DNA from: a virus
Taxonomy: Duplodnaviria; Heunggongvirae; Uroviricota; Caudoviricetes
Length of the DNA: 41,413 nt
IMG/VR virus record: IMGVR_UViG_2541047940_000004
Coordinates: 1-41,413 of that record
Strand: one strand, 5' to 3'
Below the pieces are notes generated by a model that was given only the letters and a program-made list of their open reading frames with translations, was not told the origin of the DNA and ran no database searches. Both the position numbers and the translations under genes were made by a program. This document shows positions 3,570-35,569 of the stretch, piece after piece; positions within the stretch are counted from its first letter, which is position 1; the number at the start of each line of letters is the position of its first letter.

Positions 3570-4538
3570 TCAGTAGTTATGTACTGAAGGAGGTAATTCT
3601 TTATTCTTAAGTCTTATCCATGCGGAAAGATTCGTTGGTCCGTCTGGCTCATTGATATCAACATCTCGTGTGTGGTTGATTAAAACGTCTCTCGCCATTC
3701 CGATAACATACGAGAATTCATGACCGTAGTCGTAGCATCTGCCGGAATAGTTCGATTGAATTTGTTTCAGCGCCGGATACAATTCGCGGAATAATGCCTG
3801 TGAGCGGTTGGCATAATCCCATAACCATACAAGGCTGTTTGCTTCTTTTGCAGAAAGCTCGTTTGCTTTCTTCTCTTGTTTGCCGATTAACTCGCCTTCA
3901 AGCACTACCCTGTGGATGTACTCTACGGCTTGCGGTATCTGAGATGCATCAAGCTCTTCAATACTTTCCACATTGAAACGCTGATGAATCATTGCATAAG
4001 CTTCTGGGTACATTAGATGCTTTTTGCTGACTAGCATATTTACAGCATCACGAAGCGGAGTCCTGTCATCAACAGATGTTTTCTTACGTGCATTTTCTGC
4101 CTTTCCCTTTGTCCAGTAGTCATGCAGTACAGTAAAGCATTCTTCCTGGTACTGAATCAGTTTATCACGGATGTCAGCACGAACTTTCTCAGGGTTGATG
4201 CTGATCAGCCATCCATTTAACTTCTTCAAAGGAAGGCATAGTAGCTTACGAAGCTTCCCATCAGCGGCAACCATGTTCATATGAACACAGTTGAATTTGC
4301 TAATCTGCTTCATGAGTTTTGTTTGCTGCGTTGACCAGCTCATTCCAAGGTTTTCAACGATTGGCTTCATCGCAACATATGCAACTCCGGCAGCCATGGC
4401 GGTGATAATTTGCTGACCGTTGAATGGTACATAAGAGGTGTTCACTGCTTCTAAAATTGCTATACTATTCATGTTGGTTTTTCTCCACGGATTTACTGAC
4501 AACCGAAGCCCTGACTGTTCCCGCAGTTGGGGCTTCAC
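3570..4538 (-). CDS. ant: Antirepressor Ant
   Basis: Position downstream of arc in the immI operon; ORF start at 4538 overlaps the stop of the upstream ORF (ATGA); alternative start at 4472 (MNSIAIL..., preceded by GGAG) gives 300 aa, the size I recall for P22 Ant. Confidence 0.8.
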
Positions 4539-4756
4539 TGTTTTTGTAAGTCACTGTAGTTATAAAGCCACTGACCACTCATTCTTGCTTTGATTGACTC
4601 TACTGAATCACGGCAAGGAATGATTCCACCTGACATCATTCTGATCTCCGTAAATTCACCGCTCCTTATCGACTCAATGCCATTAACGTTAACTAAAGAT
4701 TTACCTCTACCAAGTGCATTCTCATAGCCAATCTCATCAACCTCAATAAACCTCAT
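4535..4756 (-). CDS. Hypothetical 73-aa protein inserted between arc and ant
   Basis: ORF with ATGA overlap to the arc stop and to the ant alternative start; AGGGG-type RBS upstream; no P22 counterpart at this position as far as I recall. Confidence 0.5.
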
Positions 4757-22000: not shown

Positions 22001-22450
22001 TCATCGAAGGCATTGCGTCCTGATGTATTCCTGCAGGTAGTTAACCTGCGCGGTTATTTTGTCGATTCCACTTCGGAGACGGTAATAATTGAGTTCAGCA
22101 TCTGCTGTAAGTCTTGGGCTTTCTCCATCGCCCATGCTGCTGGCTCCGGTCGTTGGCTTTGCACAGGTGGCGGCGACTTGCAGGCGCTTACGACCAGCAG
22201 AAACATCAGCACGGAGACTTTCGATAGTCGCGTTAGCATCAGCAAGTTCCTTTGTATATCTTGCGTCGAGTTCTGCTACATCACGTTGACGCTTCTGCAT
22301 ATCAGCGATGATGGATGTGGCTTTATCGCGCTGTTCTTTGTAGGTCATGGCGTTATCACGGTAATGATTAACAGCCCATGACAGGCAGACGATGATGCAG
22401 ATAACCAGAGCGGAGATAATCACGGTTACTCTACTCATTGTTGCCCCCAC
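22001..22450 (-). CDS. Rz i-spanin
   Basis: 149 aa with N-terminal TM segment ([20 protein letters not shown]) and coiled-coil remainder; last gene of lysis cassette. Confidence 0.8.
22054..22245 (-). CDS. Rz1 o-spanin (embedded in Rz, +1 frame)
   Basis: 63 aa with lipobox-like LLVVSAC and proline-rich [12 protein letters not shown]; entirely within Rz. Confidence 0.7.
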
Positions 22451-22932
22451 AAACAGACTTCACGCTCAATCTCACGGCGAGTCATCAGCCCTTTCCATTG
22501 CTTACCGCCAGCGTATGTCCAGCGCCGTAGCTGATCACATGCGCCTTTGATATCGCCCTGGTTTATTTTGCGAAGAAGCGTCGATGTTCTGAAATTTCCA
22601 GCACCAACGTTGTAAACGAACGAGTAAAGAGCGCCGCGCGTTGTTTCCGGTATATCGACTTTGATGTACGGGTTAATTTGTCTGGCGACAGTGGCAAGGT
22701 CTTTATTCAGGAGGGCTTTGCATTCTGCTTCGGTATACGTTTTACCGAGCATAATGTCTTTTCCGGTATGCCCGTAACATACAGTCCATACACCAACGAT
22801 ATCTTTATATGGTATGTAGCTGACGCCTTCCAGACCATCGTTACCACTTGGGCCAGTGATTAACACAGATGCTATAGCAATAGCCCCGCCACCAATAGCC
22901 GCAGCAACGGCTTTTCGTAATGATGGAGGCAT
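22435..22932 (-). CDS. SAR endolysin (lysozyme)
   Basis: 165 aa; Gly/Ala-rich N-terminal signal-anchor-release-like segment ([20 protein letters not shown]), then lysozyme-like core; between holin and Rz. Confidence 0.8.
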
Positions 22933-23147
22933 TATTCACCTCTCGCAGCCTTTCTTCTGTCTTCTCTGATTTTGAAGTACAGATTTGTCAGATAGGTGAG
23001 AAAGCCCAACACAAGGCTTCCAAGCACCCCAATCGCAGCCCACTGTGATGGACTGACCTGATCCAACCACTGCAAAAACCAGTATCCCGCACTACCAGCG
23101 GATGTTCCGTAGGCAATGCCAGTTGAGATTTTGTCCATTGATTTCAT
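22932..23147 (-). CDS. Pinholin (phage 21 S21-type)
   Basis: 71 aa [71 protein letters not shown] matches S21 from memory. Confidence 0.85.
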
Positions 23148-23265
23148 AGCAACGCCTCCGCCAGTAACGGATTGCGTAGTTCTTATATTGGGAAGGGAGA
23201 AAAAGAAGACCGCAGCATAACTATCACTGATGAATTCAGGACATCCAGTGGCTACGGCTCAGTTA

Positions 23266-23341
23266 TGGTGCTGGTTAACGGACTTGAACCGCTACCCATT
23301 CGCTTACAAGGCGACCGCTCTACCATTGGAGCTAAACCAGC
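23266..23341 (-). tRNA. Phage-encoded tRNA-like gene, anticodon UGU (Thr)
   Basis: Hand-folded cloverleaf: 7-bp acceptor GCTGGTT/AACCAGC, D-stem GCTC/GAGC, anticodon loop CUUGUAA (U33, A37), T-arm AGCGG-TTCAAGT-CCGTT, discriminator A plus CCA; one G-A mismatch at the base of the anticodon stem. Confidence 0.6.
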
Positions 23342-23346
23342 ATATT

Positions 23347-23421
23347 TGGCGGGACAGCGTGGACTCGAACCACGATAAGAAGGTTAACAGCCTTCCGTAA
23401 TGACCTTTATACGACTGACCC
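23347..23421 (-). tRNA. Phage-encoded tRNA-like gene, anticodon GUU (Asn)
   Basis: Hand-folded: acceptor GGGTCAG/CTGTCCC (one U-U mismatch), anticodon arm GAAGG-CUGUUAA-CCTTC, T-arm CGTGG-TTCGAGT-CCACG, CCA end; D-stem imperfect. Confidence 0.5.
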
Positions 23422-23425
23422 AAAT

Positions 23426-23467
23426 AAAAAAAGCCACCGTTGCAACTTAAGAGTCACTAACGGCAGC
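23426..23467 (-). terminator. Hairpin plus 7-T run downstream of Q (tR'-like), with a possible pR' just upstream
   Basis: Minus strand reads GCTGCCGTT...AACGGTGGC then TTTTTTT; a TTGACA hexamer lies about 75 nt upstream on the minus strand. Confidence 0.4.
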
Positions 23468-23512
23468 TTATGCGAATAGTGTTGCTCATTTGCTCAATGA
23501 TGTCAACACGTT

Positions 23513-24001
23513 CTATGCTACATGTTTAATTTTCTCTACACGTTTCCGGTTTTTAAACGCACTATCCAGAACCGGGTAAATCATAAACAACGAGGCATTG
23601 AGGATTTCGTCAACTTCCCGTCGACAGGTTGCGAGCGATGGTTTTTGAATGCGCCCGCCGCCCCGGCATAACATCTTGCGAGGTCTTGCGACGCGATGAT
23701 AGTAAGATGCAATGGCGTGCTTGGAAGAGCCGTGGGCGTAGTAGCTGAGGAGGATGCCAAAGGCTTTCTTGTCAATGTACATGACGGAATCGACGACCTG
23801 AGAAATCAACATTCCATCATCATCATTACACATTGGCCTTGTCATAACTCTTCCCGGCTCTACGCTCTCCATGAACTTCGCTATTACGCTGCTCATGCGC
23901 TTTTCCAGACGACCTGAATAAACCCATGCGCCCCACAGTTCAAGCCAGCCATTCAGCCACTCATGCTGTTCTTTGGTGAGGTTTAGTTCTCTTATGCTCA
24001 T
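23513..24001 (-). CDS. Late-gene antiterminator Q-like protein
   Basis: 162 aa, last gene before the tRNAs and lysis cassette; resembles the phage-21/82-type Q family from memory; position-based. Confidence 0.65.
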   Translation of the reverse strand: MSIRELNLTKEQHEWLNGWLELWGAWVYSGRLEKRMSSVIAKFMESVEPGRVMTRPMCNDDDGMLISQVVDSVMYIDKKAFGILLSYYAHGSSKHAIASYYHRVARPRKMLCRGGGRIQKPSLATCRREVDEILNASLFMIYPVLDSAFKNRKRVEKIKHVA

Positions 24002-33883: not shown

Positions 33884-34195
33884 ATGATGATTCTGACTCT
33901 GAATGATAAGCGTGAAATATCGCAAATAATCGCAAGTTTTACTGATGAAGATTACGAGCGAATCAACAGTGAAGTTGATCGCCTCTGCAAACGTTGCGAC
34001 CCAATAAGCGAAATGCTTCGCTCATATAAACCAGATGAACACACTAAGGACGCTATCGACTGGCTGGAAGATGATGACTGTAACTATCAGGAAAAAGCCG
34101 CTGAATGGTTCTGGGATGCAATAACCGAAAGAGTTAAGGCTGAATATGCCTTCGCAATATTCAAACGCAGACATATTTATGGAGAAGCTGCATGA
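33884..34195 (+). CDS. Hypothetical 103-aa protein
   Basis: ORF immediately upstream of and overlapping the recT-like gene. Confidence 0.5.
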   Translation: MMILTLNDKREISQIIASFTDEDYERINSEVDRLCKRCDPISEMLRSYKPDEHTKDAIDWLEDDDCNYQEKAAEWFWDAITERVKAEYAFAIFKRRHIYGEAA

Positions 34196-35103
34196 GCAAT
34201 ATCGTTGAATTCGTTAAACAGCAAGAGCAGTTATTCTGCGGAGCATTGACTGAACAGACGGTGACATGGGCTAAGGAAAGCCAGTTTGCAATTCAGTATT
34301 TCCAGAAAAACGATTGCCTGGCTAAAACAGCACTGGCAAATCCAACCAGCGCACAGAACGCCATCATCAACGTTGCGGCGATCGGCATCACCTTAAACCC
34401 TGCAAGCAAACTGGCTTATCTAGTTCCGCGCGATGGCATGGTTTGCCTTGATATCAGCTATATGGGATTGCTTCATATTGCAATGGAGTCTGGTGTTATC
34501 TCATGGGGTCAGGCAAAACTTGTTCATGCTAACGATACCTATGAGTCAAACGGGCTTGATAAAGCACCAACCCATAAATACAACGCCTTCGGTGATCGTG
34601 GTGATATCGTTGGCGTTTACTGCACAGTTAAGACGCCGGCAGGTGATTATCTAACGGAAGAGATGAGTCTGGCTGAAATTGAGGCTGTAAGGAAAACAAG
34701 CAAGGCGGCATTCAGCGATAAAGGACCATGGGTAAATCACTGGAATGAGATGGCGCGAAAGACGGTCGTAAAGCGTGCAAGCAAGTATTGGCCTAAGGCA
34801 TCACGTCTTGATAGTGCTATTCACGTACTAAACGAAGAAGAAGGTGTGTGGACTGAACCAGTTATGCCGCACAAATCAGAGGAAGATATCCGCGAAGATG
34901 AACGGAAACGCCAGCAGGAAATAATGGATAAAGCACAACTTCTTTGCGATGAAATGGCTCAGGCAGAAAACATGGACGATTTGAAGCGATATTTTGCAGA
35001 AGCATATCGCCTGACATCTGGAATGAAATTGCAGCAGAACGTACAAGCCATTTACGCAGAATGCAAAGCGAAACTGGAGGTTGCCAGTGAGCAAACTATA
35101 TGA
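34192..35103 (+). CDS. RecT-family single-strand annealing recombinase
   Basis: 303 aa; position in early-left recombination module; resembles RecT-family proteins from memory; family assignment should be confirmed by HMM. Confidence 0.6.
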   Translation: MSNIVEFVKQQEQLFCGALTEQTVTWAKESQFAIQYFQKNDCLAKTALANPTSAQNAIINVAAIGITLNPASKLAYLVPRDGMVCLDISYMGLLHIAMESGVISWGQAKLVHANDTYESNGLDKAPTHKYNAFGDRGDIVGVYCTVKTPAGDYLTEEMSLAEIEAVRKTSKAAFSDKGPWVNHWNEMARKTVVKRASKYWPKASRLDSAIHVLNEEEGVWTEPVMPHKSEEDIREDERKRQQEIMDKAQLLCDEMAQAENMDDLKRYFAEAYRLTSGMKLQQNVQAIYAECKAKLEVASEQTI

Positions 35104-35569
35104 AATTGCCAATGAATACGCAAAATTGATGGATTCAGATTTAGAACCAGAGATGATTGCTGACACAATAGAAGGCATGGAAGGAGAATTTACCGATAAA
35201 ATAGAGCAACTTCTTTCCATTATTAAAAATGAATCTGGTTATGCCGAACGCCTCAAGGAAGAGGCAAAGTCACTGAATGAGCGAGCCGCAGTAATTCAAA
35301 ATAAGATTGACAGCATCAAATCATATATAGCGTCATCGCTTGAAATGGTTGGCAAGAAAAATATTCGAGCAGGTATTCACCAGGTAACAATCCGCAAACC
35401 GTCAGAAACTGTAGAAATCATCGACTCAAGCGCCCTTCCTCCTGAATACGTTGAGTTTGAAACGACAATTAAAGCCGACAAACTGGCAATCAAACACCAA
35501 CTAAAAGCAGGAATAAATATCCCCGGCGCTCAACTCAAAGTTGGGAAACCTTCACTTCTTATCAAATAA
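35087..35569 (+). CDS. Hypothetical protein, possibly Gp157-like recombination-module partner
   Basis: GTG start 6 nt after GGAGG; coiled-coil-like; directly downstream of recT-like gene. Confidence 0.4.
   Translation: MSKLYEIANEYAKLMDSDLEPEMIADTIEGMEGEFTDKIEQLLSIIKNESGYAERLKEEAKSLNERAAVIQNKIDSIKSYIASSLEMVGKKNIRAGIHQVTIRKPSETVEIIDSSALPPEYVEFETTIKADKLAIKHQLKAGINIPGAQLKVGKPSLLIK

Follow-up and report, generated by a model that had tools for sequence, protein, structure and literature searches.

The pair of tRNA genes described here, tRNA-Asn (GUU) followed by tRNA-Thr (UGU), is already known: it is annotated in phages and in hundreds of genomes, and counter-defence by the Thr member was published in 2025-2026. 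According to Govande et al. (NAR 2025), P2 OLD kills by excising the anticodon arm of host tRNA-ThrU (UGU), which it cuts at paired CNG motifs. In a cleavage time-course with four host tRNAs including tRNA-Asn, tRNA-ThrU was cut fastest; phage 21 tRNA-Thr protects cells against P2 OLD and is almost fully resistant at Site 1 in vitro, and this resistance requires both a shortened anticodon stem, with positions 27/43 unpaired, and alteration of the CNG motif by C28U/G42A (Govande et al. 2025). Overexpression of host tRNA-ThrU is published to give no protection from OLD whereas the phage variants protect, so the sequence differences between them matter. According to a 2026 preprint, HK446 tRNA-Thr (UGU) restores plaquing of OLD-sensitive phages, tRNA-Thr alone gives no rescue of lambda or of OLD toxicity in recB cells, and the escape of HK446 itself from OLD is ascribed mainly to the protein inhibitor Oad2. 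Phage tRNAs were expressed from plasmids throughout the published rescue experiments. Three host tRNAs, Lys (UUU), Thr (UGU) and Asn (GUU), are cut by the PARIS nuclease AriB, with cleavage falling between positions 40 and 41 and depending on U39, A41 and U16 (Belukhina et al. 2025); Lys is its best substrate and was required for rescue in every reported case. The role of the Thr tRNA as a stand-in is established for the near-identical copies of phage 21 and HK446.

The stretch of DNA analysed in this work (the window, 41,413 bp) is overall a P22-like E. coli podophage genome, with nucleotide identity of about 96% to CUS-3, phiv205-1 and Kapi1 (56-59% of the first 25 kb covered) and a P22-type sar RNA at 4473-4539 (Rfam). 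Set within this P22-like virion background is a late control region of the phage 21 type: positions 23150-23560 share 97.8% identity with phage 21 and, over 411 bp, 99.8% with the Shigella phage SfI. The interval 23266-23467, in which the first-pass annotation had placed two tRNA-like genes, contains tR', tRNA-Asn and tRNA-Thr. Features of the region are given below, from the antiterminator gene to the lysis genes.

23513-24001, minus strand: Q antiterminator of the phage 21 type, a 162-aa ORF (Pfam Phage_antitermQ, 87.4 bits) that matches the phage 21 antiterminator CDS
23478-23506, minus strand: late promoter pR', coordinates carried over from the phage 21 record OL657228
23501-23506, minus strand: -35 element TTGACA, transferred from OL657228, sequence identical
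23483-23498, minus strand: Q-binding element (QBE) ATTGAGCA/AATGAGCA, transferred from OL657228, sequence identical
23478-23483, minus strand: -10 element, transferred from OL657228, sequence identical
23471, minus strand: predicted late transcription start, transferred from OL657228, sequence identical
23464-23470, minus strand: predicted sigma-dependent pause element, transferred from OL657228, sequence identical
23422-23469, minus strand: intrinsic terminator tR', made up of a hairpin (23431-23469) and a U-run (23422-23430)
23347-23421, minus strand: tRNA-Asn (GUU), 75 nt, encoded CCA, discriminator G73, 4-nt variable loop
23342-23346, minus strand: 5-nt spacer AAUAU between the tRNAs, read from the sequence
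23266-23341, minus strand: tRNA-Thr (UGU), 76 nt, encoded CCA, discriminator A73, G27/A43 unpaired
23172-23378 and 23230-23400, plus strand: antisense ORFs lying opposite both tRNAs
23210-23257, minus strand: hairpin just 3' of tRNA-Thr, fold z = -2.5
22932-23147, minus strand: S21-type pinholin, first late gene (Pfam 'Bacteriophage P21 holin S', 122 bits; phage 21 annotation)
22435-22932, minus strand: endolysin (ORF; Pfam Phage_lysozyme; phage 21 and SfI annotation)
22001-22450, minus strand: Rz spanin (ORF; phage 21 and SfI annotation)

The elements of the control module are annotated with literature references in OL657228, which also annotates tRNA-Asn, tRNA-Thr, the S21 pinholin/antiholin, the SAR endolysin and the spanins. 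A Q21-family antiterminator, pR', two QBE half-sites, a pause element and a terminator were all found in the window, and from the -35 element through tRNA-Asn this Q/pR'/QBE/tR' module is base-identical to that of phage 21. The predicted transcript from 23471 to 23422 (minus strand) folds with -20.2 kcal/mol (z = -6.1), and none of 200 shuffles folded as well. Its hairpin comprises 17 pairs, interrupted, and is followed by UUUUUUUAUUU (U7AUUU), so that the hairpin and T-run previously noted after Q are real; the first base of tRNA-Asn directly follows the U-run. The same terminator is annotated as such in the phage 21 and Sf6 records, being identical in phage 21 and differing in Sf6 solely by one T fewer in the U-run. 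A simple consensus scan for promoters and terminators missed both pR', whose -10 element is weak, and tR', whose stem is interrupted.

ARAGORN was run on the full window and called exactly two tRNA genes, both within the interval above. Full-model matches to Rfam RF00005 scored 61.2 bits (E = 5e-11) for tRNA-Thr and 55.3 bits (E = 2e-9) for tRNA-Asn, where the gathering score is 29; for calibration the same test was run on genuine tRNAs of E. coli K-12, which gave 53.4-74.6 bits, and both phage scores are normal in that they fall inside this range. The two programs agree with the first-pass annotation on identity, anticodon, strand and position of both genes, and the CCA ends and canonical T-loops it described can be read in each sequence. 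Both tRNAs have stems of 7/4/5/5 bp, G18G19, U33 and a 7-nt anticodon loop, and their T-loops, UUCAAGU in tRNA-Thr and UUCGAGU in tRNA-Asn, fit the pattern UUCRANU. The stem mismatches that had been pointed out are also present, namely G27/A43 in Thr and U4/U69 and U13/U22 in Asn. Position 14 of tRNA-Thr is C in place of the usual A14, and this C14 is common to phage 21 and Klebsiella ST16. The bases read at identity positions were G1-C72, C2-G71, G35 and U36 in Thr and G34, U35, U36 and G73 in Asn, which we take to be the sets recognised by E. coli ThrRS and AsnRS. A Pfam search of the plus-strand ORFs 23172-23378 and 23230-23400 gave no match, and the view that ORF 23172-23378 is spurious is a reasonable one given its position antisense to the tRNAs; a revised annotation should list two tRNA genes here and omit the ORFs antisense to them.

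Between the start site and the holin ATG lies a leader of 324 nt, about half of which consists of the two tRNAs. The pinholin gene begins 118 nt past tRNA-Thr, and the ORFs and the phage 21 annotation both bear out the location of the pair between Q/tR' and the lysis cassette. The outer stem of the hairpin that follows tRNA-Thr is kept in phage 21, Sf6 and HK446. This hairpin was considered as a second terminator and rejected, as its U-rich tail is found only with the S21 cassette and is absent in Sf6 and HK446.

The pair was found in 369 of 5,426 complete E. coli genomes, where it is routinely annotated, and it is annotated in phages 21, Sf6, SfI and BTP1. The conserved unit consists of the late start site, tR', tRNA-Asn, tRNA-Thr and the hairpin; the same span is shared by more than 20 phage records and ends at about 23204. 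In phage 21 the gene order, the 5-nt spacer length, the encoded CCA, the following hairpin and the S21 pinholin cassette are as in the window, and tRNA-Thr differs at position 26 only (G26 against A26); the spacer has a C where the window has a T, and the virion genes of the window are, unlike those of phage 21, P22-like (relatives CUS-3, phiv205-1 and Kapi1). The tRNA pair of SfI is identical to that of the window, and BTP1 has the same block in the same position. In Sf6 the block is again in the same position, with an identical tRNA-Asn and a tRNA-Thr one base away (position 26), but the similarity to the window begins at the start site and ends past the hairpin, and the lysis cassette differs. 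HK446 carries the block in the same position with a pair 99.4% identical to the window pair, but behind a lambda-type Q/pR'/tR', and the junction, TTTTTTATTT followed by GGGTCAG, is the same as in the window. The lambda-type control elements of HK446 and the different lysis cassette of Sf6 indicate that the block is an independent mosaic unit.

More distant relatives were drawn from an annotated phage collection; a pattern scan of IMG/VR returned eight loci, which were giant-phage tRNA arrays or chance matches without a tRNA call. Other lambdoids fill the post-Q slot differently: JLK-2012 has Asn-Thr-Gly and Klebsiella lambdoids have Asn-Phe-Thr-Arg, Asn-Arg or Thr alone, with Arg (UCU) and Gly (UCC) tRNAs among the occupants. 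Some of these cassettes have Asn and Thr genes homologous to those of the window, and the Klebsiella variants of both differ at the bases linked to resistance. P1, Cyrano and N4 have the same anticodons in the order Asn then Thr, adjacent in P1 and Cyrano, in a genomic context that is not a late leader. Their Thr tRNAs are 76-82% identical to that of the window and have a full 5-bp anticodon stem, and their Asn tRNAs form a separate sequence lineage with 56-61% identity to that of the window.

The phage tRNAs of the window are 59-65% identical to the host tRNAs with which the first-pass annotation had proposed to compare them, and their anticodon-arm bases differ from those of thrU and asnT as follows.

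Window tRNA-Thr: positions 28-30/40-42 UCG/CGA, no CNG; 27-43 G/A, unpaired; positions 39/41/16 G/G/A
Host thrU: positions 28-30/40-42 CUG/CAG, CNG on both strands; 27-43 A-U, paired; positions 39/41/16 U/A/U
Window tRNA-Asn: positions 28-30/40-42 AAG/CUU, no CNG; 27-43 G-C, paired; positions 39/41/16 C/U/A
Host asnT: positions 28-30/40-42 CGG/CCG, CNG on both strands; 27-43 G-U, paired; positions 39/41/16 U/C/U

The anticodon arm of the window tRNA-Thr is identical to that of phage 21 tRNA-Thr, with the same UGU anticodon as host tRNA-ThrU, and both published determinants of OLD resistance are present in it. The G27/A43 mismatch, at first read as possible decay, is part of a published resistance mechanism. 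Substitutions at the positions that matter for AriB cleavage (39, 41 and D-loop 16) are present in both window tRNAs but are only suggestive: with some 35-41% divergence from the host, differences at 39 and 41 are fairly expected by chance. A tRNA-Lys was sought in the 41,413-bp window with ARAGORN and none was found, and a pair without Lys (UUU), the best target of AriB, cannot alone defeat B185 PARIS. Not all relatives retain the bases linked to resistance: the Asn tRNA of Klebsiella ST16 has regained paired CNG motifs, that of P1 has a perfect AriB motif (UAAUCA), and the Thr tRNAs of P1, Cyrano and Klebsiella ST974 keep a host-like CNG and a full stem. A lambda Gam-type trigger of OLD was sought among ten ORFs of the pL operon, where only RecT-like and Mu Gam-like proteins were found.

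Codon usage of the late genes, which had been proposed as a check on the tRNA genes, was enriched for ACA, at 21.2 per thousand; early genes had 14.6, ordinary K-12 genes, of which a sample was taken, 11.5, and ribosomal protein and EF genes 3.7 (p = 6e-6). Asn codons were mildly enriched (55.5 per thousand in late genes, 43.8 in ordinary host genes, 33.4 in ribosomal protein and EF genes), and the tailspike alone contains 28 ACA and 73 Asn codons. The late-gene ACA rate is about twice that of ordinary host genes (1.8-fold, and about 6-fold that of highly expressed ones), so codon supply is also plausible, and a pure form of it would have the tRNAs serve ACA and the Asn codons of Asn-rich late proteins, with nuclease resistance incidental. 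The SfI paper gives a similar contrast for ACA (17.3 vs 7.1 per thousand), and the Arg (UCU) and Gly (UCC) tRNAs that share the slot elsewhere decode AGA and GGA, codons likewise enriched in this phage. AAC and AAU, however, are not rare codons, highly expressed host genes match the late-gene rate for AAC, and the SfI authors found no codon bias accounting for tRNA-Asn. AGA, AGG and GGA are enriched above ACA, yet the phage has no tRNAs for them. Supply of the codon also leaves out the failure of extra host tRNA-ThrU to protect against OLD where phage variants succeed, and the lineage-specific combination of unpaired 27/43 with C28U/G42A fits the two-part resistance mechanism exactly. We therefore hold codon supply on its own to be an unlikely, if serious, explanation of the pair.

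A second alternative takes the tRNAs as RNA-processing punctuation, whereby their excision by RNase P and 3' nucleases would detach the Q-loading part of the leader and determine where the late mRNA begins and how stable it is. Their position in the leader, past tR' and ahead of the first late gene, and the conserved hairpin after tRNA-Thr are what such a function would call for, but the conserved anticodons, identity bases and resistance determinants are left unexplained by it. Lambda and many other lambdoids have no tRNAs in that slot and express their late genes normally, and processing as the main function is improbable.

An adaptation to the prophage state, in which tRNAs expressed in the lysogen would offset a host tRNA gene disrupted by integration, is more doubtful again and in our view has very little chance of being correct. 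It was proposed for HK446 in the discussion of the 2026 preprint, and RNA-seq of a BTP1 lysogen set both tRNA genes aside among highly expressed features, although those reads could stem from high spontaneous induction. The promoter pR' is constitutive in lambdoid lysogens, so that leaky read-through of tR' could yield stable tRNAs. The genes belong, however, to the late operon and follow tR' so closely that a separate promoter would not fit; related phages integrate in thrW (SfI) or argW (Kapi1), isoacceptors other than UGU and GUU; and the same pair is found in the non-integrating P1 and the lytic N4.

Whether the genes are functional or decaying had been left open by the first-pass annotation, and was addressed by comparison with homologues from Klebsiella lambdoid phages, P1, N4 and the SSU5-like Cyrano and with host thrU and asnT. 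For the Thr cloverleaf, 97% of cells were paired across 8 distinct sequences, and double changes were found at 10 of 21 pairs, values reached by none of 500 shuffles; when the register of the 3' partner was slid, pairing fell to 21-50%. Compensatory changes among relatives were found at 16 of 21 Asn pairs, which were counted with a structure-aware script because MAFFT had put the 4-nt variable-loop gap inside the Asn T-stem. Examples from the Klebsiella ST16 phage are U3-A70 to C3-G70 and U6-A67 to C6-G67 in Thr, and A28-U42 to C28-G42 in Asn. The G27/A43 mismatch is common to the window, phage 21 and this same Klebsiella phage, with its two compensated changes in the acceptor stem, and U4/U69 is common to three Asn lineages, one of which has its D, anticodon and T stems all rewritten. 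The noted mismatches are features conserved within lineages and not scattered damage. The window, phage 21, Sf6, SfI, JLK-2012 and ST160 share one tRNA-Asn sequence (100% identity), although their flanks differ.

Degenerate Thr copies do occur: that of ST160 has lost 4 nt and lacks a proper anticodon loop, that of JLK-2012 is chimeric, with a 5' half of phage type and a 3' part like host thrU, and neither is called by ARAGORN, with Rfam scores down to 42 and 49 bits, so that Thr is dispensable in those lineages. That the window copies are likewise non-functional relics, kept as passengers of the late regulatory block, is a reading to which the non-Watson-Crick stem positions in each tRNA, C14 of Thr and the existence of these degenerate copies lend something, and to which we give next to no credence against the strong covariation of cloverleaf pairs, mismatches kept across lineages that otherwise differ by compensated changes, an unchanged tRNA-Asn among unlike flanks, and the published in vivo activity of phage 21 and HK446 tRNA-Thr. 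Decay of the window copies is rejected on the covariation, the conserved mismatches and the normal Rfam scores. Of the two states that had been left open, function is favoured because covariation, mismatches kept within lineages, identity bases and working near-identical Thr copies all point the same way.

The reading that we consider likely, argued from sequence comparison and the published work on near-identical copies, is that the window encodes two intact, functional tRNAs within the leader at the 5' end of the late operon, with tRNA-Thr acting as a nuclease-resistant stand-in that also decodes ACA and tRNA-Asn likely having the same dual role. By its identity to phage 21, transcription would start at pR' (about 23471) and, without Q, would stop at tR', some 50 nt on. 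At the QBE and pause site Q would modify RNA polymerase, which would then pass tR', and the read-through transcript would then cover tRNA-Asn, tRNA-Thr, the conserved hairpin and the lysis and morphogenesis genes; dependence of the window tRNAs on Q is in this respect extrapolated from phage 21. Host RNase P and 3' processing enzymes would presumably excise the tRNAs. tRNA-Thr would replace host tRNA-ThrU, which is the primary target of the Toprim tRNase P2 OLD and also ranks among the prime targets of PARIS AriB, and would also supply ACA decoding to the late genes. For tRNA-Asn, a counter-defence role is suggested by the host tRNA-Asn being a slower substrate of both nucleases and by the phage tRNA lacking the bases linked to cleavage, and the same dual role is the most probable one. 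Q and the early genes also contain ACA and Asn codons, and tRNAs made only after Q cannot rescue a block of early translation.

A wider reading is put forward tentatively, namely that Asn (GUU) and Thr (UGU), as one conserved block, may form a minimal mobile cassette directed against Toprim tRNases, in which Asn, the member overlooked in HK446, would be a second cleavage-resistant tRNA against nucleases of the OLD and PARIS types. If so, placement behind tR' would provide either a Q-gated supply or a low constitutive one through leaky read-through, and the recurrence of the pair in lambdoids, P1, SSU5-like phage-plasmids and N4 would reflect Toprim tRNases, not codon usage, the pressure from such nucleases coming from P2 prophages and P4 satellites.

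Functional parallels are the tRNAs of T5, T4 and BASEL phages that act against PARIS, OLD and retron-Eco7, in which, as here, the anticodon is kept and anticodon-stem bases near the cleavage site are changed, so that the phage tRNA can take the place of the cleaved host one. Those phages are lytic and carry arrays of 10-25 tRNAs in expression units of their own, whereas the phage of the window is temperate and carries a minimal set of two tRNAs that would be gated by Q antitermination. The locus would be a natural case of a temperate phage with nuclease-resistant replacement tRNAs.

The arrangement of tRNA-Asn(GUU) followed by tRNA-Thr(UGU) was also found outside the lambdoid phages, with the same anticodons as in the window, at the following positions (numbered within each extracted comparison locus):
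L018 2425-2578, Asn-then-Thr pair of P1
L020 2473-2625, Asn-then-Thr pair of Cyrano
L019 2337-2586, Asn-then-Thr pair of N4
Host-like paired CNG motifs, the target of the P2 tRNase OLD, and the full anticodon stem are kept in the tRNA-Thr of P1, Cyrano and Klebsiella ST974, so a nuclease-resistant appearance is not general among the phage copies. The tRNA-Asn of P1 contains UAAUCA, the exact motif preferred by the PARIS tRNase AriB.

Two unusual bases were noted in the window tRNAs. Position 14 of tRNA-Thr (23266-23341, minus strand; D-loop CAAUGGUA) is C14, at a site where A14 is nearly universal in tRNAs; this C14 is common to the window, phage 21 and Klebsiella ST16, and is absent from P1 and N4. 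Position 16, which is contacted by AriB, is A16 in both window tRNAs whereas it is U16 in the host tRNAs.

Two further features of the window bear on the type of phage and on its leftward operon:
4473-4539, plus strand, sar RNA (Rfam RF00262, 87.7 bits)
34192-35569, plus strand, leftward-operon genes for an annealing protein (RecT-like) and an end-protection protein (Mu Gam-like)
The immI/ant region of P22 is under antisense control by sar RNA, and the presence of this RNA identifies the window as a P22-like phage. Lambda Gam is the usual trigger of OLD; it was not seen among the ten leftward-operon ORFs scanned in the window, and thus the usual trigger is not evident there.

Directly 3' of tRNA-Thr lies a conserved hairpin:
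23210-23257, minus strand, hairpin (fold z = -2.5) with a U-rich tail extending to ~23198
By sequence comparison, phage 21, Sf6 and HK446 all retain its outer stem (GCCGUAGC/GCUGCGG), and the hairpin is possibly a processing or 3'-protection element. Its assignment as a terminator is not clear, as the U-rich tail is limited, among the phages compared, to those with the S21 (pinholin) lysis cassette.

The BTP1 prophage carries the tRNA pair as in the window, within a block 97.4% identical. In the RNA-seq study of the BTP1 lysogen, 'the two tRNA genes' were set aside when features with TPM >100 were listed, which hints that these tRNAs build up in cultures of the lysogen, owing either to leaky read-through of tR' or to spontaneous induction.

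In two other phages the Thr copy is degenerate. Salmonella phage ST160 (L017, 2576-2660) has a tRNA-Asn 100% identical to that of the window, beside a Thr homologue that lacks 4 nt and whose anticodon arm is scrambled (no ARAGORN call; Rfam, 42.1 bits); Thr has thus been lost and Asn retained in a lineage-specific manner. The annotated tRNA-Thr of E. coli phage JLK-2012 (L015, 2581-2656) is chimeric, being phage-type at positions 1-25 and host thrU-like in the remainder, with a damaged anticodon stem (no ARAGORN call; Rfam, 49 bits), and is followed by:
L015 2900-3740, tRNA-Gly(UCC), P1-like tciA/tciB and a match to the STnc100 sRNA (107 bits)
In HK446 (NC_019714; L024, 1501-1656) the block adjoins a lambda-type tR', and the junction between tR' and block is the same as in the window.
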